Shown here: positions 4,480-57,905 of the stretch, in pieces
How positions within the stretch are numbered: position 1 is the first letter of the stretch
How the letters are laid out: the number at the start of each line of letters is the position of its first letter
Assembly (NCBI GenBank): GCA_028707125.1
Contig: JAQTUX010000001.1
Span: forward strand, 77,639 to 141,638
DNA length: 64,000 nt
DNA from: Candidatus Omnitrophota bacterium
GTDB taxonomy: Bacteria > Omnitrophota > Gorgyraeia > Gygaellales > JAQTUX01
Direction of reading: 5' to 3'
Made by a program: the position numbers and the translations under genes
The notes under the pieces: model-generated
Seen by the model: only the letters and a program-made list of their open reading frames with translations
Told to the model about the DNA's origin: nothing
The model's database searches: none

Positions 4480-4633
4480 CTTGTCCTCCGGAATTAGAAA
4501 TTCGTGTCAGCATCATGCCAACGGCTTAAGGTTTATGGGCTGGATATCAATACGAACGGCAGGACTTTATTATATGGGAAAAATGAAGCAGCGTCAAGGT
4601 GAGAAAACAATATTTTGGCGGGGAGAAAACCCC

Positions 4634-5848
4634 TTATTCCAGATAGGTATAGATCTTTCCCTTGTAATTCCTCAGGACGTATTTGCCCTTTGCCTGGGAA
4701 AGGATATAATACGGGCCGACGGGGATCTTGCCTCCTCCGCCTGGAGCGTCTATCACATATGTGGGCACGGCATAACCCGAAGTATAGCCCCTCAGTTTCT
4801 CAATGATGTTGATGCCGGCGGCAACGGGCGTGCGAAAATGCTCTGTGCCGCGCACGGGGTCGCACTGATAGATGTAATAAGGCCTGACCCTCATCTCAAG
4901 AAGCATATGCATAAGTTTTTTCATGATATAAGGCCTGTCATTGATGCCTTTAAGCAGCACGGTCTGGCTGCCCATTGGAAATCCGGCATCAGCCAGCATA
5001 TCACAGGCATTCCTGGTGCGCCTCGTGATCTCTTTAGGATGGTTAAAATGTATGCTTATCCAGAGCGGGGAATATTGCTTAAGCCGGCTGACAAGCGACT
5101 CTGTAATGCGCTGGGGCAGCGTAACAGGCACGCGCGTGCCTATCCTTACGAACTCCACGTGAGAAATCTCGCGCACGCGCTTTACTATGCCTTCTATCTG
5201 GTCGTCCTCCAGCATAAACGGATCGCCCCCTGAAATAAGCACATCCCGCACCTTTTTATTGGATCTTATGTATTCGATCGCCTTGTCAAATTTGTGCTCG
5301 GCATCTATCTCTTTTTCATCTCCCACGAGCCTGCGCCTCGTGCAATGGCGGCAGTAAGTGGCGCAGCGCTCCGTCGCCAGAAGCAGGACCCTGTCAGGAT
5401 ACCTGTGCACAAGCCCGGGAGCGGGAGAGTCCCTGTCTTCCGCGCAGGGATCAAGCATCTCATGCGGGCTGACCGTAAATTCATGCGAGGTAGGGACCGC
5501 CTGCCTCCTTATGGGGCAGTTGGGGTCGTAAGGGTCTATGAGCGTCGCCCAATACGGCGTAATGGCAACGGAAAGCCGGCCTGAGGATTTTTTGATCCCC
5601 TTCTCCTCCTCAGGAGAGAGATCGATTATCTGCGAAAGCTGTTCTTTTGTATGGATCCGGTTTTTTACCTGCCAATGCCAATCCTCCCAATCAAGAGGGT
5701 TTGCCTCCCTGAACAGAGGCATCTGATGATAGTCGATAGGGAACCGTTTGATCCTGGGGGCGCCGGACTGTTGCTGCGTTTCAGCCCGTTCAGCTACCTG
5801 CTGCTGGCTCAAAGAGAGCCTCCTTTCCCATACCGCTGGAGGGCGCAA
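4634..5848 (-). CDS. kamA: Lysine 2,3-aminomutase family radical SAM enzyme
   Basis: 404 aa. It carries the CATYCRHC (CxxxCxxC) motif, and LSVAITPYWATLIDPYDPNCPIRRQAVP matches the KamA N-terminal region. The start is uncertain: an alternative Met 43 codons in (near 5722) would remove the 40-nt overlap with the upstream gene. Confidence 0.8.
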   Translation of the reverse strand: MRPPAVWERRLSLSQQQVAERAETQQQSGAPRIKRFPIDYHQMPLFREANPLDWEDWHWQVKNRIHTKEQLSQIIDLSPEEEKGIKKSSGRLSVAITPYWATLIDPYDPNCPIRRQAVPTSHEFTVSPHEMLDPCAEDRDSPAPGLVHRYPDRVLLLATERCATYCRHCTRRRLVGDEKEIDAEHKFDKAIEYIRSNKKVRDVLISGGDPFMLEDDQIEGIVKRVREISHVEFVRIGTRVPVTLPQRITESLVSRLKQYSPLWISIHFNHPKEITRRTRNACDMLADAGFPMGSQTVLLKGINDRPYIMKKLMHMLLEMRVRPYYIYQCDPVRGTEHFRTPVAAGINIIEKLRGYTSGYAVPTYVIDAPGGGGKIPVGPYYILSQAKGKYVLRNYKGKIYTYLE

Positions 5849-6816
5849 TCAACAACCTTGCCTATCATAGCATCGTAGGTAATTCCCAGATGTTTGGCGA
5901 TAACCATAAAGACATCATCAACGGACAAAGAAGGCAGAGGGTTTATCTCAAGGACGTAGGGATTGCCGTCTTCATCCGTACGGAAATCAATCCTGCCGAA
6001 ATCGCGGCATTCAACCGCCCTGTAAGCCTTTAAGGCGTAATCCCGCATTTTATCTATCAATTTCTGAGGTATCCGCGGCGGGCATACATATCCCAGCCTG
6101 TTGGAATGTATCCTGGCGAAGGTGTAAAATTGGTCCCCGAGGTCCAGCTTGCCGTCTATCTTTACCTGCACCGGCGGGAAAACCTCGGGGTCTTCGTTGC
6201 CGATGATCGCTACGGTAAATTCCTTTCCGGATATGAACTCTTCCACCAGCGCCGGTTGTTTATATGTCTTGACCACGAAATCCACCCGCTTCCTTAAGCT
6301 TTCTTCATCGTCAACTTTGGCATCTTTGCTTATGCCCTTTGAAGAGCCCTCGAAACGCGGCTTCACGATCATGGGAAACCGCAGGTGGTCCATATTCATT
6401 TCTTCCAAACTCTTTGCCTCAAAAAATTTAGGCGTGGGTATTTTTTCATACAGCAGCATTTTCTTTGTGGCGATCTTGTCAAGCGTCAGCCCCAGGGTAA
6501 ACCCGTCGGAACCAACAAACGGCACATCCATCATTTCAAGCAGCACCGGCACCTGCGATTCCCTGTTCCTGCTTATGGCCCTGCCTTCGCAGATGTTAAA
6601 TACGATGTCAACGCCGAGATCGCCCCGCATTTCAAGCAGCCGTTCCGCGTTGCCGATCTTCTTAACGGTATGGCCGTTTTTCTCCAGCGCTGCCGCTACC
6701 GATCCTATCACGGGCCTGGAGTCCAGCTCCGCGTAGAGATCCGACGGTTCTCCCTCTTTCAGCTTATAATCCTCTTTTAAATCGTATGTAAATCCTATGA
6801 TCATAGAAAAAAGCAC
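5809..6816 (-). CDS. D-alanine--D-alanine ligase-like ATP-grasp enzyme
   Basis: 335 aa. It has a Ddl-like N-domain and ATP-grasp C-domain (…FPMIVKPRFEGSSKGISK…EEFISGKEFTVAII…RIDFRTDEDGNPYVLEINPLPSLS). The ORF-track start at 6816 is a GTG. An in-frame ATG at 6802-6804 (MIIGFTYDL) is the more likely start. Confidence 0.7.
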   Translation of the reverse strand: MLFSMIIGFTYDLKEDYKLKEGEPSDLYAELDSRPVIGSVAAALEKNGHTVKKIGNAERLLEMRGDLGVDIVFNICEGRAISRNRESQVPVLLEMMDVPFVGSDGFTLGLTLDKIATKKMLLYEKIPTPKFFEAKSLEEMNMDHLRFPMIVKPRFEGSSKGISKDAKVDDEESLRKRVDFVVKTYKQPALVEEFISGKEFTVAIIGNEDPEVFPPVQVKIDGKLDLGDQFYTFARIHSNRLGYVCPPRIPQKLIDKMRDYALKAYRAVECRDFGRIDFRTDEDGNPYVLEINPLPSLSVDDVFMVIAKHLGITYDAMIGKVVDCALQRYGKGGSL

Positions 6817-6837
6817 CTTTCCTTTCAGGTCAGGTGC
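6805..6837 (-). terminator. Intrinsic-terminator-like hairpin plus U6 immediately 5' of the ATP-grasp ATG. It is either the terminator of the upstream HAD/PAC2 operon or an attenuator.
   Basis: The minus strand reads GCACCU-(13 nt loop)-AGGUGC followed by UUUUUU, then CU and the ATG. This was read directly from the sequence. Confidence 0.4.
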
Positions 6838-6954
6838 CCTTATCGGTTTCTATCTTTCAATTTTCTTATTTTCTCCTCGGAGACGGCATTCTTAAAAAAC
6901 CAACTGTTTGATAATAACTCTATAGTTATTTTTTATCACACGCTATTATGTATG

Positions 6955-7569
6955 TCAAGAATTTTCTAAGATTTTGTTCAATTTTTCCTCCAACGCGCGC
7001 GCGCCTTCGAAACGGATACAATCAATACCCATTTTTCCCGCCTCCGCGATCAGGTCCGGCCTGTCGTCGGTATATATCACTTCTTCCGGGCCGGCATTGC
7101 TCAGGCGCAGGGCCGTATCATAGATCTCGGGCTTGGGCTTTCTTGCCCCGACCTCATAAGAAAGCACGATCCTGTCGAACACGCCGAATATATCAAATTG
7201 TTTCTTTAAAAATTCAAAATGCAGGATATTTATATTGGATATCAGCAGGATGAAAAGGTCTTTCTTCAATAATTTGGCGAGAGAATGGACCTTGAGGTTG
7301 TCGGGAGTCAAAAAAAATATATCATTCCAGATCGAGTTAAACTGCTCTATCCCTAAATTCAATTTAAGGCGCGGGCGGATCGCGTTGAAGAAGTCCCGCG
7401 GCGAAACCCTGCCCTCTTCAAATTTCTCGGTATATTCGGAATCAAAAAATACATCAAATATCTCTTTTTTGTCCAGGGGCGAAAACCGGGCGATCTTGTC
7501 CACGGCCCTCCAATGGTCAAAGTCAAGCCACACGTTGCCGAAGTCAAAGAATACCGCCTTGTATTTCAT
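6955..7569 (-). CDS. HAD-superfamily hydrolase
   Basis: 204 aa. Motif I is present (VFFDFGNV, DxG), and the central lysine and the C-terminal DD motif (TDDRPD) are present. Confidence 0.7.
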   Translation of the reverse strand: MKYKAVFFDFGNVWLDFDHWRAVDKIARFSPLDKKEIFDVFFDSEYTEKFEEGRVSPRDFFNAIRPRLKLNLGIEQFNSIWNDIFFLTPDNLKVHSLAKLLKKDLFILLISNINILHFEFLKKQFDIFGVFDRIVLSYEVGARKPKPEIYDTALRLSNAGPEEVIYTDDRPDLIAEAGKMGIDCIRFEGARALEEKLNKILENS

Positions 7570-7574
7570 CCGGG

Positions 7575-8603
7575 TTAATTATCCTTCTTTCCGCTGCCTT
7601 TAAACAGGTCCAGGAACCTGTCTTCATAATCCTTGTAAACGCTCCACTTATCCAGTTCTTTTTTAAGCTCGCCCGCCTTTGTGATATCGGATTTTACCAT
7701 CTCAAACAGCTTCTCGATCCTGGCGTTTATGGAAGACGGCAGCCGCGAATGCTGGCTAAGCAGTTTCTTGATCTTTTCTATTTCCTCTTCCCCTATCGGC
7801 TCCTGGCCTTCGTGCTCGCCCCTGACGTAATCTATCAGCTTATTGATCTCCGCCTCTACGAATTCCGCCTGTTCTTTTAATTCGGACAGATCCAGGTTGA
7901 CACCGGCCAGCACGCTGAAAACCTTCAGCACAGCCAGCGCCGCCTTGGGGTTTTCTATATGCACCGTGAAAATGGGTATCTCCCCCAGCAGGCATATGCC
8001 TTTCAATCCTCTTTTCTTTGCCATAGCGACAAATATGCCGTTCATCCCGCTGATCTCTCCCCGTTCCATGATCGTAATGCCCGCGCCTTTCAGTTTATTT
8101 ATATCGTCCGTATGCGTGCAGGAGGCAAAGACCTCCGGGGCCTTTATATGGTCTATGGGCTTGGGCAAAGAAGCAAAGCCATAGATCTTCTTCACTTTAA
8201 AATCGGCGGCTACGTCCAGTATCGCCCTGGCGTAGCTTTCCGCCCTGGAAAGATCCGGCTGCGCGTTACTGAAGAAAAAGATCAGGTCGTTATTATTGTC
8301 TTTGTCTTTCCAGAAAAAGAATTTGCTCACCGGCAGGTCCGCGATCCTTATAACCCCCTTATCCACGATCGCTGAGCCCCTGTAAAAAAACGGCCTGGGG
8401 TCGATCTCGGCAAGCTCCTCCGCCTTGAGCTTATCTATTAAATAAGTAACGGCCTTAAAAGCTACCTCCCCCATGCCGGGCCAGCCCACGATCAAGGAAG
8501 GATTGTTAAGTTTCGGCCTTTTAAATATCTTGATGTTCCTTTCCATTCTTTTCCTCCGATGGATTTTCTGCGAGTTTTTCCCGAATGTCGTCGGGTATGG
8601 CAA
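7575..8603 (-). CDS. PAC2-family protein (COG1938, proteasome-assembly-chaperone-like) with a C-terminal coiled-coil
   Basis: 342 aa. The N-terminal motif LIVGWPGMGEVA is typical of the PAC2 family. The C-terminal ~110 aa are charged and helical. The real start is probably at MERNIKIF (~8549), since the track start overlaps the upstream thioesterase gene. Confidence 0.55.
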   Translation of the reverse strand: MPYPTTFGKNSQKIHRRKRMERNIKIFKRPKLNNPSLIVGWPGMGEVAFKAVTYLIDKLKAEELAEIDPRPFFYRGSAIVDKGVIRIADLPVSKFFFWKDKDNNNDLIFFFSNAQPDLSRAESYARAILDVAADFKVKKIYGFASLPKPIDHIKAPEVFASCTHTDDINKLKGAGITIMERGEISGMNGIFVAMAKKRGLKGICLLGEIPIFTVHIENPKAALAVLKVFSVLAGVNLDLSELKEQAEFVEAEINKLIDYVRGEHEGQEPIGEEEIEKIKKLLSQHSRLPSSINARIEKLFEMVKSDITKAGELKKELDKWSVYKDYEDRFLDLFKGSGKKDN

Positions 8604-8940
8604 CCGGGCGGAAGCCGGCGTTAACGCAAACCATTACCACCTCCGCCTCGCACACTACACAATCGCCCTTGAGGACCGTTTGACTGAAAATAATAGAAGA
8701 TACCTTGATCTTAGCGGCTTCGCTCTTTACCGCCAACACATCTCCGTACCTGGCGGGCGTCCTGTACTTTATGTTGACGGACGCGATGACAAAAAAGAAC
8801 CCCCTGTTAACGCAGTCGGCTACCAGGACCCCTCTTTTTTCTAAATATTCCGTCCTTCCTCTCTCCAGGAACCTGAGGTAGTTAGCGTAATAAACTACCC
8901 CTCCGGCGTCCGTGTCTTCGTAATAAACTCTTACCTGCAT
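8521..8940 (-). CDS. Acyl-CoA thioesterase of the 4HBT/YbgC family
   Basis: 139 aa. The N-terminus VYYEDTDAGGVVYYANYLRFLERGRTEYL is the hot-dog-fold YbgC signature. Confidence 0.75.
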   Translation of the reverse strand: MQVRVYYEDTDAGGVVYYANYLRFLERGRTEYLEKRGVLVADCVNRGFFFVIASVNIKYRTPARYGDVLAVKSEAAKIKVSSIIFSQTVLKGDCVVCEAEVVMVCVNAGFRPVAIPDDIREKLAENPSEEKNGKEHQDI

Positions 8941-8952
8941 AATAATATGGGG

Positions 8953-11766
8953 TTAGAAGGCGTGGTTGGCGCCCAACCACAGGCGGGTCTGGTCTTCATC
9001 AGGATCGTCTATTGCCCTGGCCACATCTAATCTTATGCCCAATCTTTCCACAAAACCGGCTATATCTACATAAAACCTGAACCCCAGCCCCAGGTCCTTC
9101 TTGAAATCGCTGTCGTTAAAGCTGGCGAACCAGGCCTTGCCTATGTCAAAAAACGGCACCAGCTGTATTTCATCCAGATGCAGCAGATTATCAAAGCAGT
9201 ATAGCCCGAGGTCGTCCAGCACGGTCGCCCTGTATTCAATGCTTGTAAGCAGCATACGGCTGCCATTTACGGTCTTCCTGTCATAGCCGCGCAGGCCCTC
9301 ATCCCCGCCTAACTGGAACAATCTTTTATCATGCGCCTCTCCCCAGCCCAGCTTCAAGCGGCCCGCGAGTTTTGAGCCGGCTGATACAAAACGGTAAGAA
9401 TCCAATTCCAGGGCGCTTCTCCAAAATGACTCGGTACCGCCTAAGGCATGGACACCGAACTCCTGCGTCGGCGTGAAACTCCATCCGCAAACATGGTCCG
9501 GGTATGGCCCGCGCCTTGCCAGCGTGCCTTCTATCCCGAATATGGTCTCGTCCTTCCTTCTGTAATAAAGATGCTCTGAGTCCTCTGTGCCGCTTAATGT
9601 AGACAGCCCCTCAAACTTCCTGTCCCTTATCATATATACGGTAACGTGGTCGTTTATTTCCCCCAGCCCGTACGGCGCCGGCCATAACTCCCTGCGCAAA
9701 TAGATCTTGCCGCCGGTTAGATCCTCCTCTTTATGATTTGACTCCCAGTTGAAAAATTCAAACCCGGCGGCCAGATGAGAGCCGCCTATATGCTTGAATT
9801 GATAGCCCAGGGTTGATTTTACGGATTCACTGTTAAAATCATAGCCGCTCTTGATATACAGGATGTCGTCCTCGGGTTTTTGTAACGACGCCTTGAACCC
9901 TAAGGCATTAGACAGATCAGGGCCGGCCACAAGATTATATCCGTCGGGCTTCAGGAAAACCGGTATCTCGTAAGCAAAAAAGTAAACCGGCACCGGCTTA
10001 AGGTAGAGCCGGCGCGGCCAGACGTTATTGGTCCTGTCTATATCAAGCATGCTGCCGCCGGGGTCCAGCCGCGCGCTTTCCACATCCTCGGAAAAATCCA
10101 GGATCTGTACCGGGTCTTCGCCGTCCCAGGTGAGCGTCTCTTCTCTGCCGCCGGAAAGGCCTGCCTTGACCTCAACGGGCATTTGTATCCGGCCTTTGCG
10201 CTCAAGCAGGACGCTTTTGCCGCTTACCAAAGATACGGCGTAGTCGCATTGCTTATCGGTCTTCAGCCACTGGTCAAAGAACCAGCCCAGATCCCTTCCT
10301 GACTGCCCCTCGCAGATCTTTATGAAATCATCCACGCCGGCGTTTTTAAATTTAAAATCCCCTGTATAGGCCTGTATCGCCTTGACAAATACTTCATCGC
10401 CCATAAGAGCGCTCAACATTGAGATCACCGCGCTGCCCTTGCCGTAGGTAAGGGCGAAGATGGATGAGGGCTCCTGAAAACTTGAGAGCTTTCCCAGTAT
10501 GGGCCTGTCGTAGCCGTTCTTGACCAGAAAGTTATACCGGGCGATCCTGGAATCCCGGAAGGAAAAATTAGGGATAAGCCATTTGACCGGGTTCGGCAAT
10601 ACCATCACCTGCGCGTCCTTGCCGTATTTCTCCTCGACATACTTAAGCATCCAGTAGGAATTCAGCCCTTCATCAAGAAATGTCTCTTTATATTCATCGG
10701 AGCCGACTACGTTGTAAAACCACTGGTGGCCGGTTTCATGCGAGACAAGAAAATCAAAGTAGCGGATGAGGAAGCCGGGCAATTTATAGGCCCTGGTGTC
10801 TATGAAAACGAGGTTGCTCGATTCGTGGCCGCCGTATCCCAGATAACTCGGGACCACGCTGAATTCCTTATAGGGATAACTGCCGAACAGCTTACCGTAA
10901 AAATCCATTGTATCCCGGGCAAAATCACAGGCGTCCCGCGCGCTTGCCTCATCACCGGGAAGATAAAATGACTTGATCGTTACGCCGTTCTCTTCTCTGG
11001 CATAGACCTTGAAGCTGCGGCTTATTCCTAAAGAGAAATCCCGCACAGGCAGCCCGGTCTCAATAAATAAGCTCTTTGTCCCGTTGCCGTTGTCCTCTTC
11101 CTGAATAAGCTGCCCTGTATGGGCTGCCGTTTCATCCGCGGGAAGGGTCAATTTCACCTTGTATAACGACGCGTCGCTGAAGAACGGCTGATGGTATAGA
11201 TAAAAAGGATAATTATGCCAGCCGTCCTTATCCCTCACCGAAAGTATGGGATACCACCTGTTCAGCGTGGCCACATCCTCATGCCAGCCGAACCTGCCGA
11301 AGCAATGCGGGATATCCACAGTGAAGCCGATCTCGATCTTCACGGAGGAACCGGGGCCAAGCGGCGCGGGCAGACCTACATTAAGTATGGTGGCGTCTTC
11401 CCCTTCAATCTTGTATTCCGCTGTCTTTCCTTCGGCGCTTATTGACTGGATCTGCATGCCGCCCTTATCAAAGCCGCCCGGATAAGGATTGATCTTAAAA
11501 TATCCGGCGTAACGGTAAAGGAAGGCGACCTCCTTCCTGGTATAAGCCCTGTGGGGATAGATGTGAAAGAATATTTCGTTTAAGGGCTCCGCGGTATTGT
11601 TGGTGAAGGTCACGGCCTCTCGCGCGGTTATTTTATGGCCCGCGCTGTCAAAGACAGCGTCTATTTCGTATTCAGGCACAGCAGCAAAGGCGGATCCGCA
11701 CAGGATCAACGTAAATATAAAAACACCTGCGGCTCTTTTCATCTCTTTACCGGACATACATCGCAC
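8953..11766 (-). CDS. Secreted M1-family zinc metallopeptidase fused to a C-terminal Omp85/surface-antigen-type outer-membrane beta-barrel
   Basis: 937 aa. A signal peptide is present (…CGSAFAAVP). The HExxHx18E motif is intact (HETGHQWF…LDEGLNSY). The C-terminal ~300 aa carry Bac_surface_Ag-like motifs (GGDEGLRGYD…) and end in …WLGANHAF, with the terminal aromatic residue typical of such barrels. Confidence 0.65.
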   Translation of the reverse strand: MRCMSGKEMKRAAGVFIFTLILCGSAFAAVPEYEIDAVFDSAGHKITAREAVTFTNNTAEPLNEIFFHIYPHRAYTRKEVAFLYRYAGYFKINPYPGGFDKGGMQIQSISAEGKTAEYKIEGEDATILNVGLPAPLGPGSSVKIEIGFTVDIPHCFGRFGWHEDVATLNRWYPILSVRDKDGWHNYPFYLYHQPFFSDASLYKVKLTLPADETAAHTGQLIQEEDNGNGTKSLFIETGLPVRDFSLGISRSFKVYAREENGVTIKSFYLPGDEASARDACDFARDTMDFYGKLFGSYPYKEFSVVPSYLGYGGHESSNLVFIDTRAYKLPGFLIRYFDFLVSHETGHQWFYNVVGSDEYKETFLDEGLNSYWMLKYVEEKYGKDAQVMVLPNPVKWLIPNFSFRDSRIARYNFLVKNGYDRPILGKLSSFQEPSSIFALTYGKGSAVISMLSALMGDEVFVKAIQAYTGDFKFKNAGVDDFIKICEGQSGRDLGWFFDQWLKTDKQCDYAVSLVSGKSVLLERKGRIQMPVEVKAGLSGGREETLTWDGEDPVQILDFSEDVESARLDPGGSMLDIDRTNNVWPRRLYLKPVPVYFFAYEIPVFLKPDGYNLVAGPDLSNALGFKASLQKPEDDILYIKSGYDFNSESVKSTLGYQFKHIGGSHLAAGFEFFNWESNHKEEDLTGGKIYLRRELWPAPYGLGEINDHVTVYMIRDRKFEGLSTLSGTEDSEHLYYRRKDETIFGIEGTLARRGPYPDHVCGWSFTPTQEFGVHALGGTESFWRSALELDSYRFVSAGSKLAGRLKLGWGEAHDKRLFQLGGDEGLRGYDRKTVNGSRMLLTSIEYRATVLDDLGLYCFDNLLHLDEIQLVPFFDIGKAWFASFNDSDFKKDLGLGFRFYVDIAGFVERLGIRLDVARAIDDPDEDQTRLWLGANHAF

Positions 11767-47397: not shown

Positions 47398-47828
47398 ATC
47401 GCACCGCCATCCTTTCTAAAAACGCGCTTCAGATACGCGAGCCATCTGCCGACCCTGAAGCTCCATAGTCCTTCGCGTTCTGTTTTGTTTATGAAACTTA
47501 TGTAATCCAAAACATCCTTGCGGTCATCTTCGCCTATTTCTAAAAACCTCGCGCCGACATCAAACAGGTCGGTGCCCTTGACAGGCCTCGCCCAGACGGT
47601 CTTCAGGCGCGCCTTTATTGACTTGCCGAACACCGGCATATTAATTTCTATCTCAAGATTTTGCCCGATGGTGAGAGGATCTTTAACGCGGAGCAGGAGC
47701 CCGTCTAAGCTGATGTTGCGAGACACAGAGGCAACCGGCATTGTTGACTCGGATGCCCCCTGAGGCCTGTATTTGACAAGGAAATAGATCGGCGTGCGGG
47801 GAAACTGCCTTTTATTCTGCTTTTTCAT
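47394..47828 (-). CDS. Stand-alone PilZ-domain protein, a putative c-di-GMP receptor
   Basis: 144 aa. It has an RxxxR-like motif (RQFPRTP) and NISLDG (D/NxSxxG). Confidence 0.6.
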   Translation of the reverse strand: MKKQNKRQFPRTPIYFLVKYRPQGASESTMPVASVSRNISLDGLLLRVKDPLTIGQNLEIEINMPVFGKSIKARLKTVWARPVKGTDLFDVGARFLEIGEDDRKDVLDYISFINKTEREGLWSFRVGRWLAYLKRVFRKDGGAI

Positions 47829-48111
47829 ATCATACCTTAATCTCTTATTCTATTGATAGTTATATTGTTTGTCAATTTATATTATGAATAAAACGCCTTG
47901 TTTCTCGTCTGTCGGTCGCGGTTGCGCCGCTCGTATCGTTTTACGTTATACGCATAACGTAACCAGCCGCGCAACCGTCCAACGTTAGACGAGTTTTAAA
48001 TTTCTGCTTGCAAATAACAACATCTTTGTTATAATGGTGATGTTTTCAAAAACAACGGGGATTTTTACGTATCGTATGGCGGTTCTTGTTTATTTTCCCC
48101 TGTTAATAATC

Positions 48112-48129
48112 TGTGGATTCTGTGGATAA
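48112..48129. promoter_or_regulatory. Tandem DnaA boxes immediately upstream of dnaA
   Basis: TGTGGATTC followed by TGTGGATAA. The second is the exact reverse complement of the consensus TTATCCACA. A TATAAT-like -10 element lies at ~48031. Confidence 0.6.
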
Positions 48130-48140
48130 TTTATAACGAT

Positions 48141-49505
48141 ATGGGCACTTCTCCCCTTGTAGCAGCCTGGGAACAGGCAAGACAGATAATTAAGCATAAT
48201 ATAGGCCAATCCGCGTTTGACACCTGGCTTGAACCCTTACAGGCGAAGTCAAAAGACAAAACGTTGATTACGTTAGAGGCCCCGGACGTCTTTTTTAAAG
48301 AATGGGTGTCCCAGCGCTATCTCGGGATAATCAAGGATTCTCTCGTAAAAATCTGTGGATATCCTGTTACTGTTGAGTTACAGGCCGGCGCCGGCACATC
48401 CGGCGCGCCGGCGCCATCTGGCGGCTACGCGCATAATACATATGCCTCGGAATTAAAAAATGCCGCGGGCCCTGCCGTGAACATCGTAACCGCGCTCAAT
48501 CCTAAATACACATTTGATAACTTTATAGTCGGAAGCGCCAACAGGTTCGCGCACGCCGCGTCTATGGCTGTGGCGGAAAGCCCGGCCAAATCCTACAACC
48601 CTTTATTTATATATGGAGGGGTAGGTTTGGGGAAAACCCATCTTATGCAGGCGATATGCCACTTCGCGTTAAAGAAATACCCCGCCATAAAGATCTGCTA
48701 CCTTCCATCGGAACGTTTCACCAACGAGCTTATAGACGCGATACAGCACCGTTCTACGCAGCAATTCAGGCACAAATACCGCGGGGCGGATATATTGGTA
48801 ATAGACGATATCCATTTTATAGCGGGCAAGGAGTCCACGCAAGAGGAGTTTTTCCACACGTTTAATACCTTATACGACGCGCACAAACAGATAATCATCT
48901 CTTCCGACAGGCCGCCCAAAGAAATAGCCGGCCTCGAAGAAAGGCTGGTATCGCGGTTCAGTTGGGGCCTGATCACGGATATCCAAATGCCGGATTTTGA
49001 AACGCGGGTGGCGATACTGAAAAAAAAGATAGAACGCGAGCCGGTCAACGTCCCCGACGACGTTATATTCTTTATAGCGGAATTTATAACAACCAATATC
49101 AGAGAGTTGGAGGGGGCGCTGATAAGGGTTGTCGCGTACTCTCTGTTAGAGGAAAAACCTATTACACTCCAACAGGCCAAAGAGGTCCTCGGGGATACCA
49201 TTAAAAACAACAAAAAATCCATCACGGTCGAGGGTATTCAAAAAATGGTTGCCGACAACTTCGGGATATCCCTGTTGGACATAAAGACAAGAAGGCGCAA
49301 TAAAAACATTGTTTTCCCCAGACAGGTAGCGATGTATATAAGCAGGGAATTGACCGAGTTTTCTCTTCCGGAAATAGGTGAGTTTTTTGGGGGAAAAGAC
49401 CACACGACCGTATTACACGCTTACAATAAGATCAAAGAACATATTAACAGAGATGCCGACCTGCGCGGTAAAATACAAAAACTTATTAAAGATATCACAC
49501 AATAA
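48141..49505 (+). CDS. dnaA: Chromosomal replication initiator protein DnaA
   Basis: 454 aa. The AAA+ Walker A is GGVGLGKTHL, with sensor motifs and a C-terminal DNA-binding domain. Confidence 0.95.
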   Translation: MGTSPLVAAWEQARQIIKHNIGQSAFDTWLEPLQAKSKDKTLITLEAPDVFFKEWVSQRYLGIIKDSLVKICGYPVTVELQAGAGTSGAPAPSGGYAHNTYASELKNAAGPAVNIVTALNPKYTFDNFIVGSANRFAHAASMAVAESPAKSYNPLFIYGGVGLGKTHLMQAICHFALKKYPAIKICYLPSERFTNELIDAIQHRSTQQFRHKYRGADILVIDDIHFIAGKESTQEEFFHTFNTLYDAHKQIIISSDRPPKEIAGLEERLVSRFSWGLITDIQMPDFETRVAILKKKIEREPVNVPDDVIFFIAEFITTNIRELEGALIRVVAYSLLEEKPITLQQAKEVLGDTIKNNKKSITVEGIQKMVADNFGISLLDIKTRRRNKNIVFPRQVAMYISRELTEFSLPEIGEFFGGKDHTTVLHAYNKIKEHINRDADLRGKIQKLIKDITQ

Positions 49506-49664
49506 ATCCAAAGGATATGCAAAGCATATACAAGGCGCCACGATGGCTTAATCTTTGAATTATTATAGGGTTGCGTACTTATTACAGTAACGCAACCCTA
49601 TTACTACTAATACGTTTATTCTTTAAAATAATATTAATCATATTCAAACATTGGGGACGCGGGG

Positions 49665-49701
49665 ATAACAAGGAGATAATCGATGAAATTTAAAACCCAG
49701 A
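49665..49701. other. 12-bp-stem hairpin in the dnaA-dnaN spacer, followed by an AT-rich tract
   Basis: ATAGGGTTGCGT-(13 nt)-ACGCAACCCTAT, followed by tttattctttaaaataatattaatcatattc. It could be a dnaA terminator or part of a DNA unwinding element. Confidence 0.4.
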
Positions 49702-50777
49702 AGCAAGGCCTGCTCAACGGTACATCTATAGTGCAAAACGCGATCAATCCAAGGGGCGCGTTGCCTATCTTATCTAATATATTATTGGAGGATTATCAAA
49801 AAACACTAAGGTTGATCTCCACCGATCTGGATATTTGCGTGAGTTATTCCCTGGTAGTGGATTCGCAGGAGGATGGCGCTATAACCGTTCCCGCCAAAAG
49901 GTTTTTTGATATTATACGAGAGCTACCCGAAGGAGAGGTGTCTGTAACCACCAAAAAAAACAATATGGTAACAATCGAATCCCAAAACTGCCTGTTTAAA
50001 ATAATGGGGCTGCCGAAAGAGGATTTTCCAAAACTGCCCGAATTCAAAGATAAAGAGGCGATCAAGATCGAGCAAGGGGTTTTAAAAGAGATGTTCGCCT
50101 TGACATCTTTTGCCGTTTCTCATGATGAAGCAAGGTATATTCTGAACGGTATTTTAATGAAGATCAAAAAGAACGCTTTGACGCTGGTTGCTACCGATGG
50201 GCGGCGCCTGGCTATAATTGAAAGAAAGATCGATTTTAACAGCACCAAAGAAACACAAGCGATCATACCCCTGAAAACAATCCAGGAGTTATTGAGAAAT
50301 CTTAATGAAGAAAAGGAATTGTCTTTAGTGATGACCCATAACCAGGCACTCTTTGATATGGGCCAGACAACGGTGATCTCCCGGTTGATCGAGGGGGAAT
50401 TCCCTGATTATCAACAGGTTGTCCCGGCTCCGGCAGAAGACAAGATAATTGTGGACAGGGAGCCGTTTTTATTAGCGGTAAAACGCGCGTCATTATTAGC
50501 CACTCCTGATTATCAGGCGGTAAAAATGGAGGTGTTTAAAAACAGAATGATCCTTTCCAAGTCTACTCCCGACATAGGAGAATCCAGGGAGGAGGTAGAG
50601 GTGGAGTATCAGGGTAAAGAAATGGTTATAGGTTTTAATCCATCCTTTTTAGTGGATGCCCTGAAGAACCTCAAGATAGAAAAGGTCTGTTTTGAGATCG
50701 CGGGAGCGGATAAGCCGGGGGTAATAAGGACGGACAACAACTATATATATGTTGTTTTGCCGATGCGCCTCAGTTAG
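49683..50777 (+). CDS. dnaN: DNA polymerase III beta sliding clamp
   Basis: 364 aa with the three-domain beta-clamp pattern. Confidence 0.9.
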   Translation: MKFKTQKQGLLNGTSIVQNAINPRGALPILSNILLEDYQKTLRLISTDLDICVSYSLVVDSQEDGAITVPAKRFFDIIRELPEGEVSVTTKKNNMVTIESQNCLFKIMGLPKEDFPKLPEFKDKEAIKIEQGVLKEMFALTSFAVSHDEARYILNGILMKIKKNALTLVATDGRRLAIIERKIDFNSTKETQAIIPLKTIQELLRNLNEEKELSLVMTHNQALFDMGQTTVISRLIEGEFPDYQQVVPAPAEDKIIVDREPFLLAVKRASLLATPDYQAVKMEVFKNRMILSKSTPDIGESREEVEVEYQGKEMVIGFNPSFLVDALKNLKIEKVCFEIAGADKPGVIRTDNNYIYVVLPMRLS

Positions 50778-50794
50778 CCGGGCGCCTGCTTAGC

Positions 50795-51091
50795 ATGCAG
50801 CAGATCAAAGATACGGTTAAAAAGATAGTCGGGGAGATCGGCAGCAGGCGTTCGGGTAATGAATGCGTGGCGCGGGCTTTTGAAAAGGCCTTTTCCAGGC
50901 CGGAAAAAAAGCACTTGAGATTTATCGGTTGCAAAAATAAAATATGTGTGGTAAATGTAGATACTTCGGGATGGCTGTATCATTTAAGCTTGAAGAAAGA
51001 AAGGGTGAGGAAGCTGATCAATGAAGAACTCGGTGGTAAGGGCGGCTCATCGGCGGTAGATGATATAAGGTTCCGCATCGGAGAGGTATAG
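50795..51091 (+). CDS. DUF721-family (DciA-like) protein
   Basis: 98 aa. …ICVVNVDTSGWLYHLSLKKERVRKLINEELG…DIRFRIG matches the DUF721 pattern. It has the conserved position upstream of gyrB. Confidence 0.55.
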   Translation: MQQIKDTVKKIVGEIGSRRSGNECVARAFEKAFSRPEKKHLRFIGCKNKICVVNVDTSGWLYHLSLKKERVRKLINEELGGKGGSSAVDDIRFRIGEV

Positions 51092-51095
51092 ATAA

Positions 51096-53549
<2,454 letters not shown>

Positions 53550-53552
53550 ACT

Positions 53553-55982
53553 ATGTATACCCGCAACGAAAAGATAATACCGGTTTATATTGAAGACGAG
53601 GTCAAGGATTCGTATCTGAATTACGCGATGAGCGTGATCGTCGGCCGCGCCCTTCCCGACGTGCGCGACGGCTTAAAGCCGGTGCATCGCAGGATCCTTT
53701 ACGCGATGCAGGAGCTGGGGCTTGAGCACAACAGGTCCTATAAAAAATGCGCCCGTATCGTCGGAGAGGTCCTGGGCAAGTATCATCCTCACGGCGACGT
53801 GGCGGTGTATGACGCGTTAGTGAGGATGGCGCAGGATTTTTCCTTACGCTATCCTTTAGTGGACGGCCAGGGCAACTTCGGCTCTGTTGACGGCGACGCG
53901 GCGGCGGCGATGCGTTATACCGAGGCGAGGCTGGCCGGCATCGCGCAGGAAATACTGGCGGACATCGACAAGGACACCGTAAACTTCGGACCGAACTTCG
54001 ACGCTTCTTTGCAGGAGCCGCTTCTTTTGCCCGCGGCGCTGCCGAATCTTTTGATCAACGGTTCCAGCGGCATAGCCGTAGGCATGGCCACGAATATACC
54101 GCCGCATAATTTGAAAGAAGTGGCGGACGCCATAATCTACCTTTTAGATAATCCCGCGGCAGAGATCAAAGACCTGATGCGCTATGTCAAAGGGCCGGAC
54201 TTTCCTACGGGCGCGATCATTTGCGGCCGGCAGGGGATCAAAGACGCCTATATGACAGGCAAGGGCAAAGTCCTGGTGCGCGCGCGGGCTACGGTAGAAC
54301 ATCAGAAAAACGGTAAAGATCTGATCGCTGTCAGCGAGATCCCTTATCAGGTGCAGAAATCTTCCCTGATCGAAGCCATAGCCGGGCTTGTGGACGACAA
54401 AAAGATCGAAGGTATTTCCGATATCCGTGATGAGTCCGACAAGGAAGGTATGCGCATAGTCGTGGAACTCAAACGCGATGCCGAGCCGCAGATCATCTTA
54501 AACCAGCTGTATAAGCATACACAGTTAGAGGTGACCTTCGGTATAATCATGCTCGCGCTCGTGGATAACCGGCCGCGGGTCCTCAATCTGCGCCAGATAC
54601 TCGAGGCCTATATTACGCACCGCAAGATAATCATCCGCAGGCGCACGCAGTTTGAACTGGACAAGGCGCTCAAACGCGCGCACATCCTGGAGGGGCTGAA
54701 GATCGCCCTCAAGTTTATAGACCGCATTATTAAGGCGATCAAGACCTCAAAGAATACCGAAGAGGCGAAGCATCGCCTGATGAAAGAATTCGGGCTCTCC
54801 GAGATCCAGTCCCAGGCGATCCTGGAGATGCAGCTGCAGCGCCTGACCGCCCTGGAACGCGATAAGATCGACGCCGAATACGCGGAATTACTCAAGAAGA
54901 TCGAATTGTGCAGGGCCATCCTCGCCTCCGAGAAAAAGATAGAAGGCATTATTAAAGAAGAATTGGAAGGGCTTAAGAAAAAATACGCCGACCCCAGGCG
55001 CACGGATATCGTGGGGGAAGTAGAGGAGCTGGAGGTGGAGGACCTGATCGCCGAGGAGGACGTAGTCGTAACCATAAGCCACGGCGGCTATATAAAGCGG
55101 CTTCCGGTAAGCGCCTACCGCAAACAAAAGCGCGGGGGCAGAGGCGTTACGGGCGCCGAGGTTAAAGAAGAGGATTTTATTGAGCATCTTTTTGTGGCGT
55201 CCACAAAGGACTATCTGCTTATTTTTACCGATAAAGGCCAGGTGCATTGGCAGAAGGTATATGAGATCCCCCAGGCGGGCCGGGCATCAAAAGGCAAGGC
55301 CATAGTGAACCTTCTGCAGGTAGAACCGGGAGCAAAAATAAGCTCTACCATACCTATTAAGGAATTCTCCGCGGACAAGTATCTGGTCATGGTCACAAAG
55401 CAAGGCCAGGTCAAGAAGACAAAATTGGACGCTTACAGCAACCCGCGCAAAGGCGGCATCATCGGCATCACCCTTGATAAAGGCGATGAGTTGATCGGCG
55501 TGGAATTGACCGACGGCAAACAGGAATTGCTTATCGGTACCCGCCAGGGCAAGGCCGTGCGTTTTTCCGAGGCCAATGTGCGCGATATGGGCAGGGCCGC
55601 GCACGGCGTTCGCGGCATAAAATTAGCCAAAAGCGACCAGGTCATCGCGATGGTGGTGGTGCAAAAGGGCGCTACAATATTGACCGTAACGGAATTGGGG
55701 TTTGCCAAGCGCACGCCCATAGATGAATACCGCCTGACCAGCCGCGGCGGCAAAGGGATCATCAATATGAAGATCACCGGCAAAAACGGCCCCGCGGTAA
55801 GCCTCAAAGGCGTCGGCGACAAAGACGAGCTCATGGTGATCACGGAGAACGGGATATTTTTGCGTTGCGCGGTCAAGGACATCCGCCATACGGGCAGGGC
55901 CGCGCAGGGCGTGCATTTGATAAAACTGGACGACAAGGATCGCGTTTCCTGCATCGCGCCCTTAATCAGCGAGGAAGAATAA
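53553..55982 (+). CDS. gyrA: DNA gyrase subunit A
   Basis: 809 aa. The active-site Tyr region is [10 protein letters not shown], and C-terminal beta-pinwheel repeats are present. Confidence 0.95.
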
Positions 55983-55988
55983 TCTCAC

Positions 55989-56063
55989 GACCCCATCGTC
56001 TAGCCTGGTCCAGGACAAGAGCTTTTCAAGCTCTCGACGCGGGTTCAAATCCCGCTGGGGTCG
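55989..56063 (+). tRNA. tRNA-Glu (anticodon TTC)
   Basis: Acceptor GACCCCA/TGGGGTC, anticodon stem AGAGC/GCTCT with loop TTTTCAA, and T-arm GCGGG-TTCAAAT-CCCGC. Confidence 0.8.
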
Positions 56064-56072
56064 CTTTTTATT

Positions 56073-57905
56073 ATGTGCGGCATAGTCGGATATATAGGCC
56101 GGAAACAGGCAGCGCCCCTGCTTATCGAGGGGCTTAAACGGCTTGAATACAGAGGGTATGATTCAGCCGGGCTGGCGCTTTTAACGGCCAGGGATAAATT
56201 ATTTATAAAGAAGCGCAAAGGAAAGATCTCCGGCCTCATTGAAGCCCTGGATAAAGAAGGTATTCCGGCATCTACCCTGGGCATTGCTCATACCAGATGG
56301 GCCACGCACGGAGCCCCCACCGAAACAAACGCCCACCCGCATACCGGCTGCGCTCCCAAAATATGCCTCGTTCATAACGGCATTATAGAAAATTACCAGG
56401 AACTCAAATCCTCACTCGCGAAACAAGGCCATAAGTTTAAATCAGAGACCGATACCGAGGTCGCGGCGCATCTTATTGAGGAGTATTATAAGGGCAGCCT
56501 TTTTGAAGCGGTAAAGCGGGCCGTTAAAAGAATAAAAGGGTCTTTTGCCTTCGGCGTTATCTGCGCGCGAGAGCCGGATATATTGGTGTGCGCCCGCCGG
56601 GACAGCCCGCTTATCGTGGGAATAGGCAGGGGCGAGAACTTCATCGCCTCCGACGCGCCCGCTATCCTAAGGCACACAAAGGACGTGATCTATCTTGAGG
56701 ATGACCAGGTTGCCGAGCTCAACCGCGAGACGGTCAGGATAGCCGATGCCAGAGGCAGGGCTGTCAAGCCCAGGATCCACGCGATTAACTGGGACCTGTC
56801 CAGCGCTGAAAAAGAAGGGCTTCCTCATTTTATGTTGAAAGAAATATTTGAGCAGCCCAAGGTTTTAAAGAGGATCATCTCCAGCAGGGTCTCAAGATCA
56901 GGCCGGATAATTTTTAAAGACAGCCGCATCCCCGATAGCGAGCTCAAGGCCGTAAGAGATATAATAATCGTTGCCTGCGGTACCGCCTATCATGCCGGGC
57001 TGGTAGGAAAGTACGCGATAGAGGCGATAGCCAGGGTGCCTGTTTGGGTGGACTTGTCCAGCGAGTTCAGATATAGAGACCCCATTATTAACAAAAATAC
57101 CCTGGTTATCTCTATAAGCCAGTCAGGAGAGACCGCGGACACTTTAGCGGCAGTGCGCCAGGCAAAGGCGAAAGGCGCTAAGGCATTGACTATTTGCAAT
57201 GTAGTGGGCTCCTCTATTGTCCGGGAGTCGGATTGGGTCATCTATACTATGGCAGGCCCTGAAATAGGCGTTGCGTCTACCAAGGCATATACGGCGCAGA
57301 TCATGACGTTGTATCTGTTGGCCATATACCTCGCGTCTTTAAAAAATAGCGTATCTGCCGGCCGCAGAGGCCAGTTGTTGAAATCACTGAAGGCGATCCC
57401 CCTGCTTTGCGAGGCTGTATTATCAGGCCACAGGCAGATAAGATCGGTCGCCAATAAGCATTCGCATTTTGGCTGCTTTCTGTTTTTGGGCAGGAATATC
57501 AATTATCCTACCGCGCTGGAGGGCGCGCTCAAGTTAAAAGAGATCTCCTACATTCCGGCCGAGGGCTATGCTGCCGGAGAAATGAAGCACGGGCCCATTG
57601 CCTTGATCGATGAATACAGGGCGGTTGTGTGCGTCGCCCCCCATTCCAGGACATATGAAAAGATGGTCTCCAACATACAGGAGATACGCAGCCGCAGGGG
57701 CCGGGTTATCGCCATATCCACCCGGGACAATGACCATATTAAAGAGCACGCGGATGAAATAATCTATATTCCCAAAACAGAGGAAATATTTTCTCCTTTA
57801 CTTGCCGTTATACCCCTTCAGCTCATAGCTTATTATATAGCGGTCAACCGCAAATGCGACGTGGACCAGCCGCGCAACCTTGCTAAATCCGTAACCGTTG
57901 AATAA
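56073..57905 (+). CDS. glmS: Glutamine--fructose-6-phosphate aminotransferase
   Basis: 610 aa. MCGIVGY is the N-terminal nucleophile Cys. Two SIS domains are present and the protein ends …VTVE. Confidence 0.95.
   Translation: MCGIVGYIGRKQAAPLLIEGLKRLEYRGYDSAGLALLTARDKLFIKKRKGKISGLIEALDKEGIPASTLGIAHTRWATHGAPTETNAHPHTGCAPKICLVHNGIIENYQELKSSLAKQGHKFKSETDTEVAAHLIEEYYKGSLFEAVKRAVKRIKGSFAFGVICAREPDILVCARRDSPLIVGIGRGENFIASDAPAILRHTKDVIYLEDDQVAELNRETVRIADARGRAVKPRIHAINWDLSSAEKEGLPHFMLKEIFEQPKVLKRIISSRVSRSGRIIFKDSRIPDSELKAVRDIIIVACGTAYHAGLVGKYAIEAIARVPVWVDLSSEFRYRDPIINKNTLVISISQSGETADTLAAVRQAKAKGAKALTICNVVGSSIVRESDWVIYTMAGPEIGVASTKAYTAQIMTLYLLAIYLASLKNSVSAGRRGQLLKSLKAIPLLCEAVLSGHRQIRSVANKHSHFGCFLFLGRNINYPTALEGALKLKEISYIPAEGYAAGEMKHGPIALIDEYRAVVCVAPHSRTYEKMVSNIQEIRSRRGRVIAISTRDNDHIKEHADEIIYIPKTEEIFSPLLAVIPLQLIAYYIAVNRKCDVDQPRNLAKSVTVE

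Follow-up and report, generated by a model that had tools for sequence, protein, structure and literature searches.

An operon of two overlapping genes, found in a 64,000-nt stretch of DNA from a Candidatus Omnitrophota bacterium (contig JAQTUX010000001.1; the whole stretch is called the window below), pairs kamA, encoding a lysine 2,3-aminomutase, with an upstream gene for an ATP-grasp ligase that has the fold of D-alanine--D-alanine ligase (Ddl) and is designated AG1. From comparative sequence analysis, we hold with moderate confidence that the operon is dedicated to a beta-lysine-derived amide, with AG1 ligating beta-lysine at the expense of ATP. Ligation of beta-lysine into a dipeptide, an oligomer or another amide by an ATP-grasp enzyme had been proposed in a first-pass annotation of this DNA, and it is still the best reading, well supported by comparative genomics. 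On this reading, the fate of beta-lysine would differ from acetylation, from modification of elongation factor P (EF-P) and from fermentation, the fates listed in that annotation; the list was incomplete, as it omitted natural-product and polymer routes (streptothricin; epsilon-poly-beta-lysine, PMC10522769). Searches of the literature for KamA or beta-lysine in combination with ATP-grasp or Ddl brought up no description of a system that pairs KamA with an ATP-grasp enzyme.

Relatives of AG1 number in the thousands. The closest 120 protein clusters are 60-73% identical to it, and nearly all named organisms among them are Omnitrophota. A metagenome scan yielded 80 loci at 41-65% identity to AG1, and reference proteins were placed by tblastn. 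The downstream sequence was long enough for a judgment in 49 loci, and in 44 of these KamA comes next on the same strand, in a contiguous AG1-(AG2)-KamA arrangement, where AG2 is a second, paralogous ATP-grasp protein, 41% identical to AG1. AG2 stands between the two in 30 of the 44, while in fourteen loci AG1 is followed directly by KamA, as in the window and in L006, its closest relative (73%). KamA is nonetheless present elsewhere in the locus in two of the five exceptions. Adjacency spans about 41-73% protein identity, and beyond it lie covalent fusions in both orders: KamA-ATP-grasp proteins of 746-826 amino acids in about 30 protein clusters, those of Margulisbacteria, Desulfoferrobacter and Syntrophobacteraceae DRH4 and about 25 others, and ATP-grasp-KamA proteins of 695-731 amino acids, for example in Eubacteriales beside a block of lysine-biosynthesis genes, lysA-dapF-dapB-dapA. 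The outcome that the first-pass annotation had named as contrary to its proposal, a ligase clustering with true Ddl and showing no co-occurrence with kamA, is not what this neighborhood comparison returned. We conclude that the pairing is not due to chance, and that it recurs in at least four lineages beyond Omnitrophota.

Tandem ATP-grasp-ATP-grasp proteins are also numerous. No second ATP-grasp gene was found near the ATP-grasp-KamA fusions, which suggests that AG1 and KamA by themselves make up a minimal, self-sufficient module. The window holds this two-gene version; most relatives have a second ATP-grasp, and none was found in the window. In a neighbor-joining tree the window, L006 and L040 nest inside a clade with three-gene loci, which suggests that the window's lineage lost AG2 secondarily, and a more basal clade has only two-gene loci. 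Distant versions of the system add further genes: a RimI-like GNAT acetyltransferase in L001 and L090, a single ATP-grasp-GNAT fusion protein in L066, a fusion of a histone-deacetylase-family domain to a GNAT domain in L092, and an MFS transporter inserted between the genes in L093. The GNATs of these versions resemble RimI/RimJ-type families, not AblB. In L089 (6682-10835) a single protein of 944 amino acids joins Peptidase_S51, ATP-grasp and KamA domains. Its S51 domain, from the dipeptidase E / cyanophycinase family, has the GxSAG nucleophile motif intact (GVSAGS), and the fusion gene is translationally coupled to an upstream gene for a 440-residue protein with weak resemblance to PaaK/F390 synthetase.

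The two enzymes and their predicted product

The longest open reading frame (ORF) of kamA is 4634-5848 on the minus strand, which would overlap the AG1 gene by 40 nt. So long an overlap is not the likely one. A TTG start at 5812 is favored, preceded by GGAAAGGAGG with GGAGG 5 nt upstream, and it yields a protein of 392 amino acids (5812-4634), compared with 393-394 in orthologs, whose KamA starts likewise overlap the preceding stop codon. The AG1 stop and the KamA start then share the letters TTGA, a 4-nt overlap. The first-pass annotation had described an aminomutase gene downstream of, and overlapping, a Ddl-like ATP-grasp gene, and every feature of that description was found at or near the position given for it. 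The two genes form a bicistronic, translationally coupled operon with its own promoter and leader.

KamA matches the Pfam Radical_SAM model (E = 1.6e-12) and is 62% identical, over 362 residues, to the crystallized lysine 2,3-aminomutase of Clostridium subterminale (2A5H), a radical S-adenosylmethionine (SAM) enzyme that uses pyridoxal phosphate (PLP). Its motif CATYCRHC (CxxxCxxC) aligns with C125, C129 and C132 of 2A5H, and Arg134, Asp293, Asp330 and Lys337 (the last in GGGGK) are all identical, in the segments YQCD, VIDAPGGGGK and CTRRR. In the published structure of the enzyme, Arg134 holds the alpha-carboxylate of the substrate, Asp293 and Asp330 its epsilon-amino group, and Lys337 the PLP. 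The two aspartates mark lysine enzymes, glutamate 2,3-aminomutase having Lys and Asn in their place. Among NCBIfam models the protein passes that of the KamA family, TIGR00238 (344 against a cut-off of 199.2), clearly fails the EpmB model TIGR03821 (242.6 against 369.3) and does not reach the cut-offs for glutamate and arginine aminomutases. It falls just short of the AblA equivalog model TIGR03820 (522.6 against 525.4), with the last 55 or so model positions absent, because it ends some 50 residues early; a fused KamA homolog, P0315, passes the same model with 527.9. The window's KamA has no C-terminal domain, ending at the equivalent of residue 367, so that the cysteine-rich segment around C375, C377 and C380 is missing, and the zinc ligand C268 is replaced by Arg. 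In our view it is a true lysine 2,3-aminomutase whose C-terminus has been shortened. This shortened C-terminus is precisely where the ATP-grasp domain is joined on in the fusion proteins of other lineages, which hints at a complex between KamA and the ligase.

AG1 is encoded on the minus strand from the ATG at 6804 to 5809, and its 331 amino acids are identical to the NCBI-called protein P0001. It matches the Pfam model Dala_Dala_lig_C (E = 7.6e-36), and an AlphaFold2 model with a mean predicted local distance difference test (pLDDT) score of 95.2 superposes on Ddl structures with template-modeling (TM) scores of 0.77-0.86; the top 50 Foldseek matches are all of Ddl/VanA type. By sequence the relationship is distant. 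Solved Ddls match AG1 in a search of PDB sequences at E = 1e-29 or weaker, with 22-25% identity, and the L-amino-acid ligase BL00235 is a weak match there (E = 1.2e-5). AG1 falls under the cut-off of all 49 NCBIfam models that it matches, the best being NF002378 (172.5 against 243), and scores 147.9 against 245.65 for TIGR01205. Residue positions were assigned from two alignments, one made by HMMER against Yersinia Ddl and the other by MAFFT from 78 AG1 sequences, 42 AG2 sequences and E. coli DdlB. The equivalents of K97, K144, E180, E187, R255, D257, E270 and N272, at positions for ATP, magnesium and acyl-phosphate, are invariant in AG1. Positions that bind D-alanine are changed: H63 to E, Y216 to I, G276 to S, and S281/L282 to D/V. 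In addition, E68 is R, position 280 is acidic, and the N-terminal GGxSxEHEVS of Ddl is replaced by YDLK...PxDxxAE[FL]D. Position 281 is Asp in 72 of 78 AG1 sequences and Ser in all 42 of the AG2 sequences, which keep the Ddl-like Gly276/Ser281 pattern. In Ddl this serine binds the carboxylate of the second D-alanine.

The sub-threshold scores and the change of S281 to Asp support the view that AG1 is not a bona fide Ddl, as the first-pass annotation had surmised, and the profile and structure searches agree with its description of a Ddl-fold enzyme. AG1 is thus predicted to be an active Ddl-fold ligase whose acceptor site is differently charged. No mur, fts or other cell-wall genes neighbor it in any locus examined. 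Some database records name AG1 orthologs D-alanine--D-alanine ligase, a label that many entries give to these proteins and that is probably wrong. Several points pull the other way. The residue assignments rest on sequence alignment to Ddl, and that alignment is ambiguous in the N-terminal part of AG1. The paired changes H63 to E and E68 to R may be a swapped structural salt bridge, and a proposal that they supply extra acidic groups for a diamino substrate has been downgraded for that reason. The identity of AG2 to E. coli DdlB reaches 36%. Finally, a search of the window and of the retrieved related loci turned up no canonical ddl.

The steps that we propose are as follows. KamA would convert L-lysine to beta-lysine by radical-SAM/PLP chemistry, an assignment made because of its strong homology to a known enzyme and the retention of all substrate-binding residues. 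The fused or adjacent arrangement implies that the ligase uses the product of the aminomutase. AG1 would form an acyl-phosphate and condense it with an amine, beta-lysine being at least one of its two substrates. With Asp in place of Ddl Ser281, an ordinary alpha-amino acid is a less likely acceptor than a cationic amine. The amine might be the epsilon- or beta-amino group of a second beta-lysine, which would yield an isopeptide of the beta-lysyl-beta-lysine type, or it might be that of a diamine or polyamine. In the two-gene version the simplest reaction would be condensation of beta-lysine with a second beta-lysine or another diamine. Most relatives would elongate the product with AG2, which probably takes an amino acid as nucleophile, given its Ddl-like Gly276 and Ser281, and some lineages would N-acetylate, deacetylate or transport the product. 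The GNAT, deacetylase, MFS and S51 partners fit a soluble, amine-rich metabolite that is acetylated, deacetylated, exported or hydrolyzed, rather than a modification of protein or cell wall. The product may thus be a small, soluble and probably cationic molecule, serving as a compatible solute or polycation.

Few fates of beta-lysine are known. An ATP-grasp ligase dedicated to it would open a new branch of amino-acid metabolism and extend the Ddl fold to a new class of substrate. Nearly all of the Omnitrophota sampled, a phylum of very small, uncultivated and possibly host-dependent bacteria, have the module, and its product, whether an osmolyte, a polycation or a secreted cationic peptide, may be central to their physiology. 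Compact constructs for heterologous testing are offered by the fusion proteins and by the minimal version with two genes.

The promoter and leader

Between the upstream HAD gene and AG1 lies a gap of 150 nt that contains a compact series of signals, all on the minus strand. The -35 box TTGACA (6953-6958) includes the TGA stop codon of the HAD gene (6957-6955) and is separated by a 17-nt spacer from an extended -10 element, TGATAAAAA (6930-6938). A search for the string TTGACA-N14-TGNTAAAAA finds it a single time in the window and a single time in each of 35 related loci, in every case upstream of AG1. In all, 46 related loci and the window have TTGACA, 17 nt, and TGnTAAAAA or a near variant, the exact form TGnTAAAAA being that of the same 35 loci and the window. 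With its perfect -35 box and extended -10 element, this near-invariant sequence is predicted to be a strong sigma-70-type promoter.

Immediately before the AG1 start codon stands a terminator-like hairpin, GCACCT (6837-6832) paired with AGGTGC (6818-6813) and followed by six U residues (6812-6807), then CT, then the ATG. The first-pass annotation had reported this hairpin and its U6 tract, placing the tract 3 nt before the ATG; the distance is 2 nt. All 46 promoter-bearing related leaders end in a stem-loop with a U-run (free energy -8 to -19 kcal/mol), and in about 20 of them the U-run ends 2-9 nt from the AG1 start codon. Complementarity is retained through at least eight distinct stem sequences. 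In an alignment of 42 sequences, 93.8% of the cells pair and five of seven base pairs show double-sided changes, 30 such changes in total against 8.4 in shuffled alignments, none of 500 shuffles reaching the observed value; the pairing collapses once the register is slid. These data support a conserved intrinsic terminator, and its position downstream of the promoter therefore makes it a predicted attenuator of the operon. Of the two forms of control that had been suggested for this leader, attenuation or an operator, it is attenuation that the comparison favors.

The operator suggestion concerned an imperfect palindrome, AATAAC-TATAGA-GTTATT (AATAACTATAGAGTTATT; 6930-6913), directly 3' of the -10 element and on the expected transcription start. 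A palindrome of such size in AT-rich sequence is not above chance alone. Inverted repeats around the promoter average 7.4 matches against 6.5 in shuffles, a small excess, and about ten related loci have a different inverted repeat (ATATTGT..ACAATAT) centered at the same place. An operator here is a weakly supported guess.

A mini-ORF, TTG AAA GAT AGA AAC CGA TAA (MKDRNR; 6860-6840), begins 12 nt after a Shine-Dalgarno-like GAGGAG (6878-6873), and its stop codon ends 2 nt before the hairpin. Such a frame is recognizable in 41 of the 46 leaders. Its start codon, TTG in 36 leaders, GTG in four and ATG in one, stands 10-18 nt (mostly 12-14) after a Shine-Dalgarno-like motif that is usually GGAGG, and A-rich codons follow it. 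The stop codon precedes the hairpin in 21 loci and lies inside it in three, and in 17 the frame runs through the terminator. We propose that transcription from the sigma-70-type promoter must pass the terminator, whose U-run stops 2 nt short of the AG1 ATG, and that read-through is probably set by translation of the mini-ORF, a ribosome on the leader ORF hindering formation of the terminator much as in pyrBI or pyrE. Against this proposal stand the unusually long spacing from Shine-Dalgarno motif to start (mostly 12-14 nt, compared with 4-9 nt for most genes here), the variable position of the stop, the absence of the mini-ORF from a few leaders, and the failure of RNAalifold to find an antiterminator or conserved second helix in the AT-rich leaders.

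Two other mechanisms were considered. A riboswitch-like aptamer in the window's leader is not supported: RNAalifold on full AT-rich leaders gave no structure, owing in part to misalignment of the hairpins by MAFFT, and Rfam 15 returned nothing better than E = 5 for the window's leader and, across 16 related loci, only a match to nuoG (E = 0.37) that is below the gathering score and off the leader. Sensing of lysine codons by the mini-ORF was rejected as a general mechanism, since the leader ORFs of a GC-rich sister clade often have no Lys codon. The combination of promoter, mini-ORF and terminator is a clean candidate for a new attenuator.

That sister clade (L051, L059, L060, L061, L067, L068 and L077) has a different and longer leader, located for example at about 450-600 in L061. 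There a 34-bp hairpin with 16 covarying pairs (matched by none of 500 shuffles) sequesters the start codon of the leader ORF, and the ORF reads through the terminator to overlap the AG1 start as TGATG in L059, L061 and L068, or to end one base upstream of it in a fourth locus. The leader has no Rfam match, and its hairpin is likewise a candidate for a new cis-regulatory RNA.

Two further features of these leaders may be recorded. In the window, a second tiny ORF, ATG CCG TCT CCG AGG AGA AAA TAA (MPSPRRK; 6866-6889), overlaps the Shine-Dalgarno-like GAGGAG, and a CUCC just upstream could pair with its GGAG; this arrangement is seen in the window only and not in related leaders. In L009, L010, L018, L030, L031 and L035, about 60-230 nt of palindromic repeats, with motifs such as CATAACTTATGGAG...ACATAAGTTATG...CGAATTAATCCC, lie between the terminator and the AG1 ATG, and look like repetitive extragenic palindromic (REP) or miniature inverted-repeat transposable (MITE) elements of Omnitrophota.

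Genes around the operon

Gene identities in this region were assigned by Pfam and NCBIfam profile searches. On the minus strand, the order of transcription is a fusion of an M1 peptidase to Omp85 (11766-8953), a YbgC-like thioesterase (8940-8521), a PAC2-family protein (8546-7575), a HAD hydrolase (7569-6955), AG1, kamA, an elongation factor G (EF-G)-like gene (4479-2521), a gene for a protein with the YchF C-terminal domain (2524-1826) and purH (1806-253). Searches of the window for a second ATP-grasp, a GNAT, efp and a canonical ddl found none. Directly 3' of the kamA stop, a weak hairpin, GGGG-TTTTCT-CCCC (4620-4633), probably marks the end of the bicistronic unit, and 154 nt separate kamA from the EF-G-like gene.

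The first-pass annotation had placed the HAD, PAC2 and thioesterase genes directly upstream of the pair and had associated them with it. Their position was given correctly; a functional link is not borne out. The three genes are tightly packed (8940-6955) and constitute an operon of their own. PAC2 and HAD genes occur within 3 kb upstream of the pair in just nine of 35 loci, all of them Omnitrophota, and are absent from all distant AG-KamA systems examined and from many other Omnitrophota loci. This distribution, together with the separate promoter of AG1, led us to reject them as part of the pathway and to regard the link as lineage-specific, local synteny. The thioesterase passes TIGR00051 and narrowly misses TIGR02799 (141.1 against a cut-off of 141.35). 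The longest ORF for the PAC2 protein starts at 8603, the true start being probably its Met20, which has a GGAGG Shine-Dalgarno sequence. Pfam confirms the family (PF09754, 136.7 bits against a gathering threshold of 25.8), membership of which implies no function, and TIGR00162 gives only 95 against 200. In some Omnitrophota a block of M20 deacylase, PAC2 and HAD genes, sometimes with HypE, precedes AG1; an M20 hydrolase is upstream of AG1 in about ten Omnitrophota loci, and the window has no M20 gene.

The downstream genes also appear to be lineage synteny outside the module. Among 23 Omnitrophota loci, an EF-G-like gene follows kamA in ten, the YchF-C gene in twelve (3' of kamA or of the EF-G-like gene) and purH in seventeen. 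The EF-G-like protein has only 652 amino acids, about 45 residues that would follow the G domain are passed over when it is aligned with EF-G models, and its gene has a strong promoter-like site of its own, TTGACG-17-TATAAT (4597-4569). The YchF-C protein (232 amino acids) consists of an N-terminal part with no known match and the C-terminal domain of YchF only (TIGR00092 positions 272-367), the GTPase N-terminal region of the model being unmatched.

Elsewhere in the window, the 937-residue protein encoded at 8953-11766 combines an M1 zinc-aminopeptidase domain with an outer-membrane barrel of Omp85 type, an unusual architecture that is kept in L006 (3106-5907). The genes dnaA (48141-49505), dnaN, gyrB, gyrA and glmS lie on the plus strand within 47400-57905, and gene orientation and GC skew both flip sign near 48 kb. 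The likely site of the chromosomal replication origin is thus about 47.4-48.1 kb, which would place the AG1-kamA operon about 41 kb from it. Short hairpins with a GTAA loop stand directly before an AGAGG Shine-Dalgarno sequence upstream of the minus-strand gene starts at 17561, 25602 and 30156; two are identical, ACTACACAC-GTAA-GTGTGTAG, and one is ACAGGC-GTAA-GCCTGT.

Alternative readings and known systems

The simplest alternative holds that AG1 is the organism's D-Ala-D-Ala ligase and that its linkage to kamA is accidental synteny. Names in some database records and the lack of a separate canonical ddl in the window or retrieved loci would suit it. AG1, however, is below every curated Ddl threshold and has changed residues at key D-Ala-binding positions, and neither adjacency across some 41-73% identity nor covalent fusion to KamA in both orders, in several distant lineages, is expected of an accident; we regard this alternative as close to refuted. 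A role in the cell envelope, either through a beta-lysine dipeptide or through attachment of beta-lysine to the peptidoglycan stem peptide, has a precedent, as an ATP-grasp D-aspartate ligase of the cell wall is paired with a racemase, an amino-acid-modifying enzyme. Ddl is the closest fold and sequence family, and AG2 keeps the Ser281/Gly276 pattern and reaches its 36% identity to DdlB. Yet cell-wall genes adjoin the pair in no locus, AG1 lacks the serine that would bind the carboxylate of the second D-Ala, and GNAT fusions, KamA fusions and an MFS transporter are unexpected for a cytoplasmic step of peptidoglycan synthesis, so we judge such a role improbable. About equally improbable, in our estimation, is the transfer of beta-lysine by AG1 to a protein, an EF-P-like or RimK-like change to some component of translation in which AG1 would replace EpmA. 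ATP-grasp enzymes such as RimK do modify ribosomal proteins, beta-lysine on EF-P is a precedent, and the EF-G-like and YchF-C genes (ten and twelve of 23 loci) follow kamA in Omnitrophota. These neighbors are missing, though, outside Omnitrophota and in several Omnitrophota loci; distant systems carry an MFS transporter and enzymes of acetylation and deacetylation; KamA is of the lysine 2,3-aminomutase/AblA type and not EpmB (242.6 against 369.3), AG1 is closest to Ddl enzymes that act on small substrates, and no efp was found in the window, in which epmA was not searched for.

Two alternatives change the order or the extent of the proposed reactions. The ligase might first make a lysine peptide, whose bound lysine KamA would then isomerize. 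A KamA that lacks the C-terminal domain and zinc site, and is often fused to the ligase, could have an altered substrate or work in a complex; still, Arg134, Asp293 and Asp330, which hold free lysine, are all kept, and at 62% identity to an enzyme of free lysine the reversed order is very improbable. The most serious alternative, unlikely as we consider it, is that the ligases build a non-ribosomal, polycationic isopeptide by polymerizing beta-lysine, either by itself or along an aspartate-type backbone; the product would be a counterpart, made by ATP-grasp enzymes, of epsilon-poly-beta-lysine or cyanophycin. No Ddl-type enzyme is known to be processive, and no domain for primer handling or membrane export like those of polymer synthetases is present. 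The two paralogous ligases, often fused in tandem, bring to mind cyanophycin synthetase with its two ligase sites; the acceptor site of AG1 is acidic; and the triple fusion of S51, ATP-grasp and KamA domains retains its nucleophile motif, although it is a single case and the GNAT, deacetylase and MFS neighbors suit a small molecule better. The natural epsilon-poly-beta-lysine cluster includes a lysine 2,3-aminomutase (PMC10522769). In its broadest form the idea would make the cassette, in most Omnitrophota and scattered members of at least four other lineages, an ATP-grasp route to an oligomer or polymer of beta-lysine isopeptides or to a cyanophycin-like backbone decorated with beta-lysine, an unrecognized polycation or a surrogate for polyamines, with synthesis gated by a new translation-coupled attenuator; we rate this form, too, as unlikely.

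A ligase that makes a small beta-lysine amide, the reading we prefer, resembles several known systems in part. With Ddl (the DdlB and VanA family) AG1 shares the fold and the ATP/Mg-binding and acyl-phosphate residues, and it differs in being 22-25% identical, below cut-offs, changed at the D-Ala residues, and linked or fused to KamA without a cell-wall gene context. The AblA/AblB system, which makes N-epsilon-acetyl-beta-lysine in methanogens and corresponds to kamA-yodP in Bacillus, has the same type of first enzyme and likewise an adjacent gene that derivatizes beta-lysine. There the second enzyme, AblB, is an acetyltransferase, whereas here it is an ATP-dependent ligase. The operon contains no AblB-like GNAT, and none could be detected in the window. 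GNATs are confined to some of the distant versions, where they accompany the ligases and do not replace them, and KamA is without the C-terminal 50 residues and the zinc ligand C268. In the EpmB/EpmA system, too, an aminomutase of the KamA family feeds beta-lysine to an ATP-using ligase, but EpmA is a paralog of lysyl-tRNA synthetase and not an ATP-grasp enzyme, KamA here fails the EpmB model, and efp is not nearby.

Among ATP-grasp enzymes, carnosine synthase (ATPGD1/CARNS1), with its M20 carnosinases, and the L-amino-acid ligases BacD/YwfE, RizA and BL00235 similarly join a free amino acid or beta-amino acid to another to give a small dipeptide. The M20 hydrolase gene upstream of AG1 in about ten Omnitrophota loci, absent from the window, is a further likeness. 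The known enzymes belong to other ATP-grasp subfamilies and are without a fused or coupled enzyme that forms the beta-amino acid. The Ngg system, which makes N-acetylglutaminylglutamine amide with a GNAT and an ATP-grasp enzyme, follows the logic of an N-acetylated dipeptide osmolyte that distant versions of the present system may share, since they combine ATP-grasp and GNAT domains, once in a single protein (L066); its substrates and ATP-grasp subfamily are different, and the window's version has no GNAT. The leader has its nearest parallel in attenuators of the pyrBI and pyrE type, where a promoter, a short leader ORF and a terminator likewise stand just before the first gene and the ORF ends at the terminator or runs through it. 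The present leader has no link to pyrimidines, is not in Rfam, and has in many loci a mini-ORF of just 2-7 codons. Oligomers and polymers of beta-lysine made by nonribosomal peptide synthetases, in streptothricin and epsilon-poly-beta-lysine, share the placement of an aminomutase gene beside that of an amide-bond-forming enzyme that uses beta-lysine; the gene for epsilon-poly-beta-lysine synthetase adjoins a lysine 2,3-aminomutase gene (PMC10522769). Those are systems of Actinomycetes that work by adenylation and carrier-domain chemistry, in contrast to the acyl-phosphate chemistry predicted for an ATP-grasp enzyme, and the system described here is found phylum-wide in Omnitrophota, among housekeeping genes.

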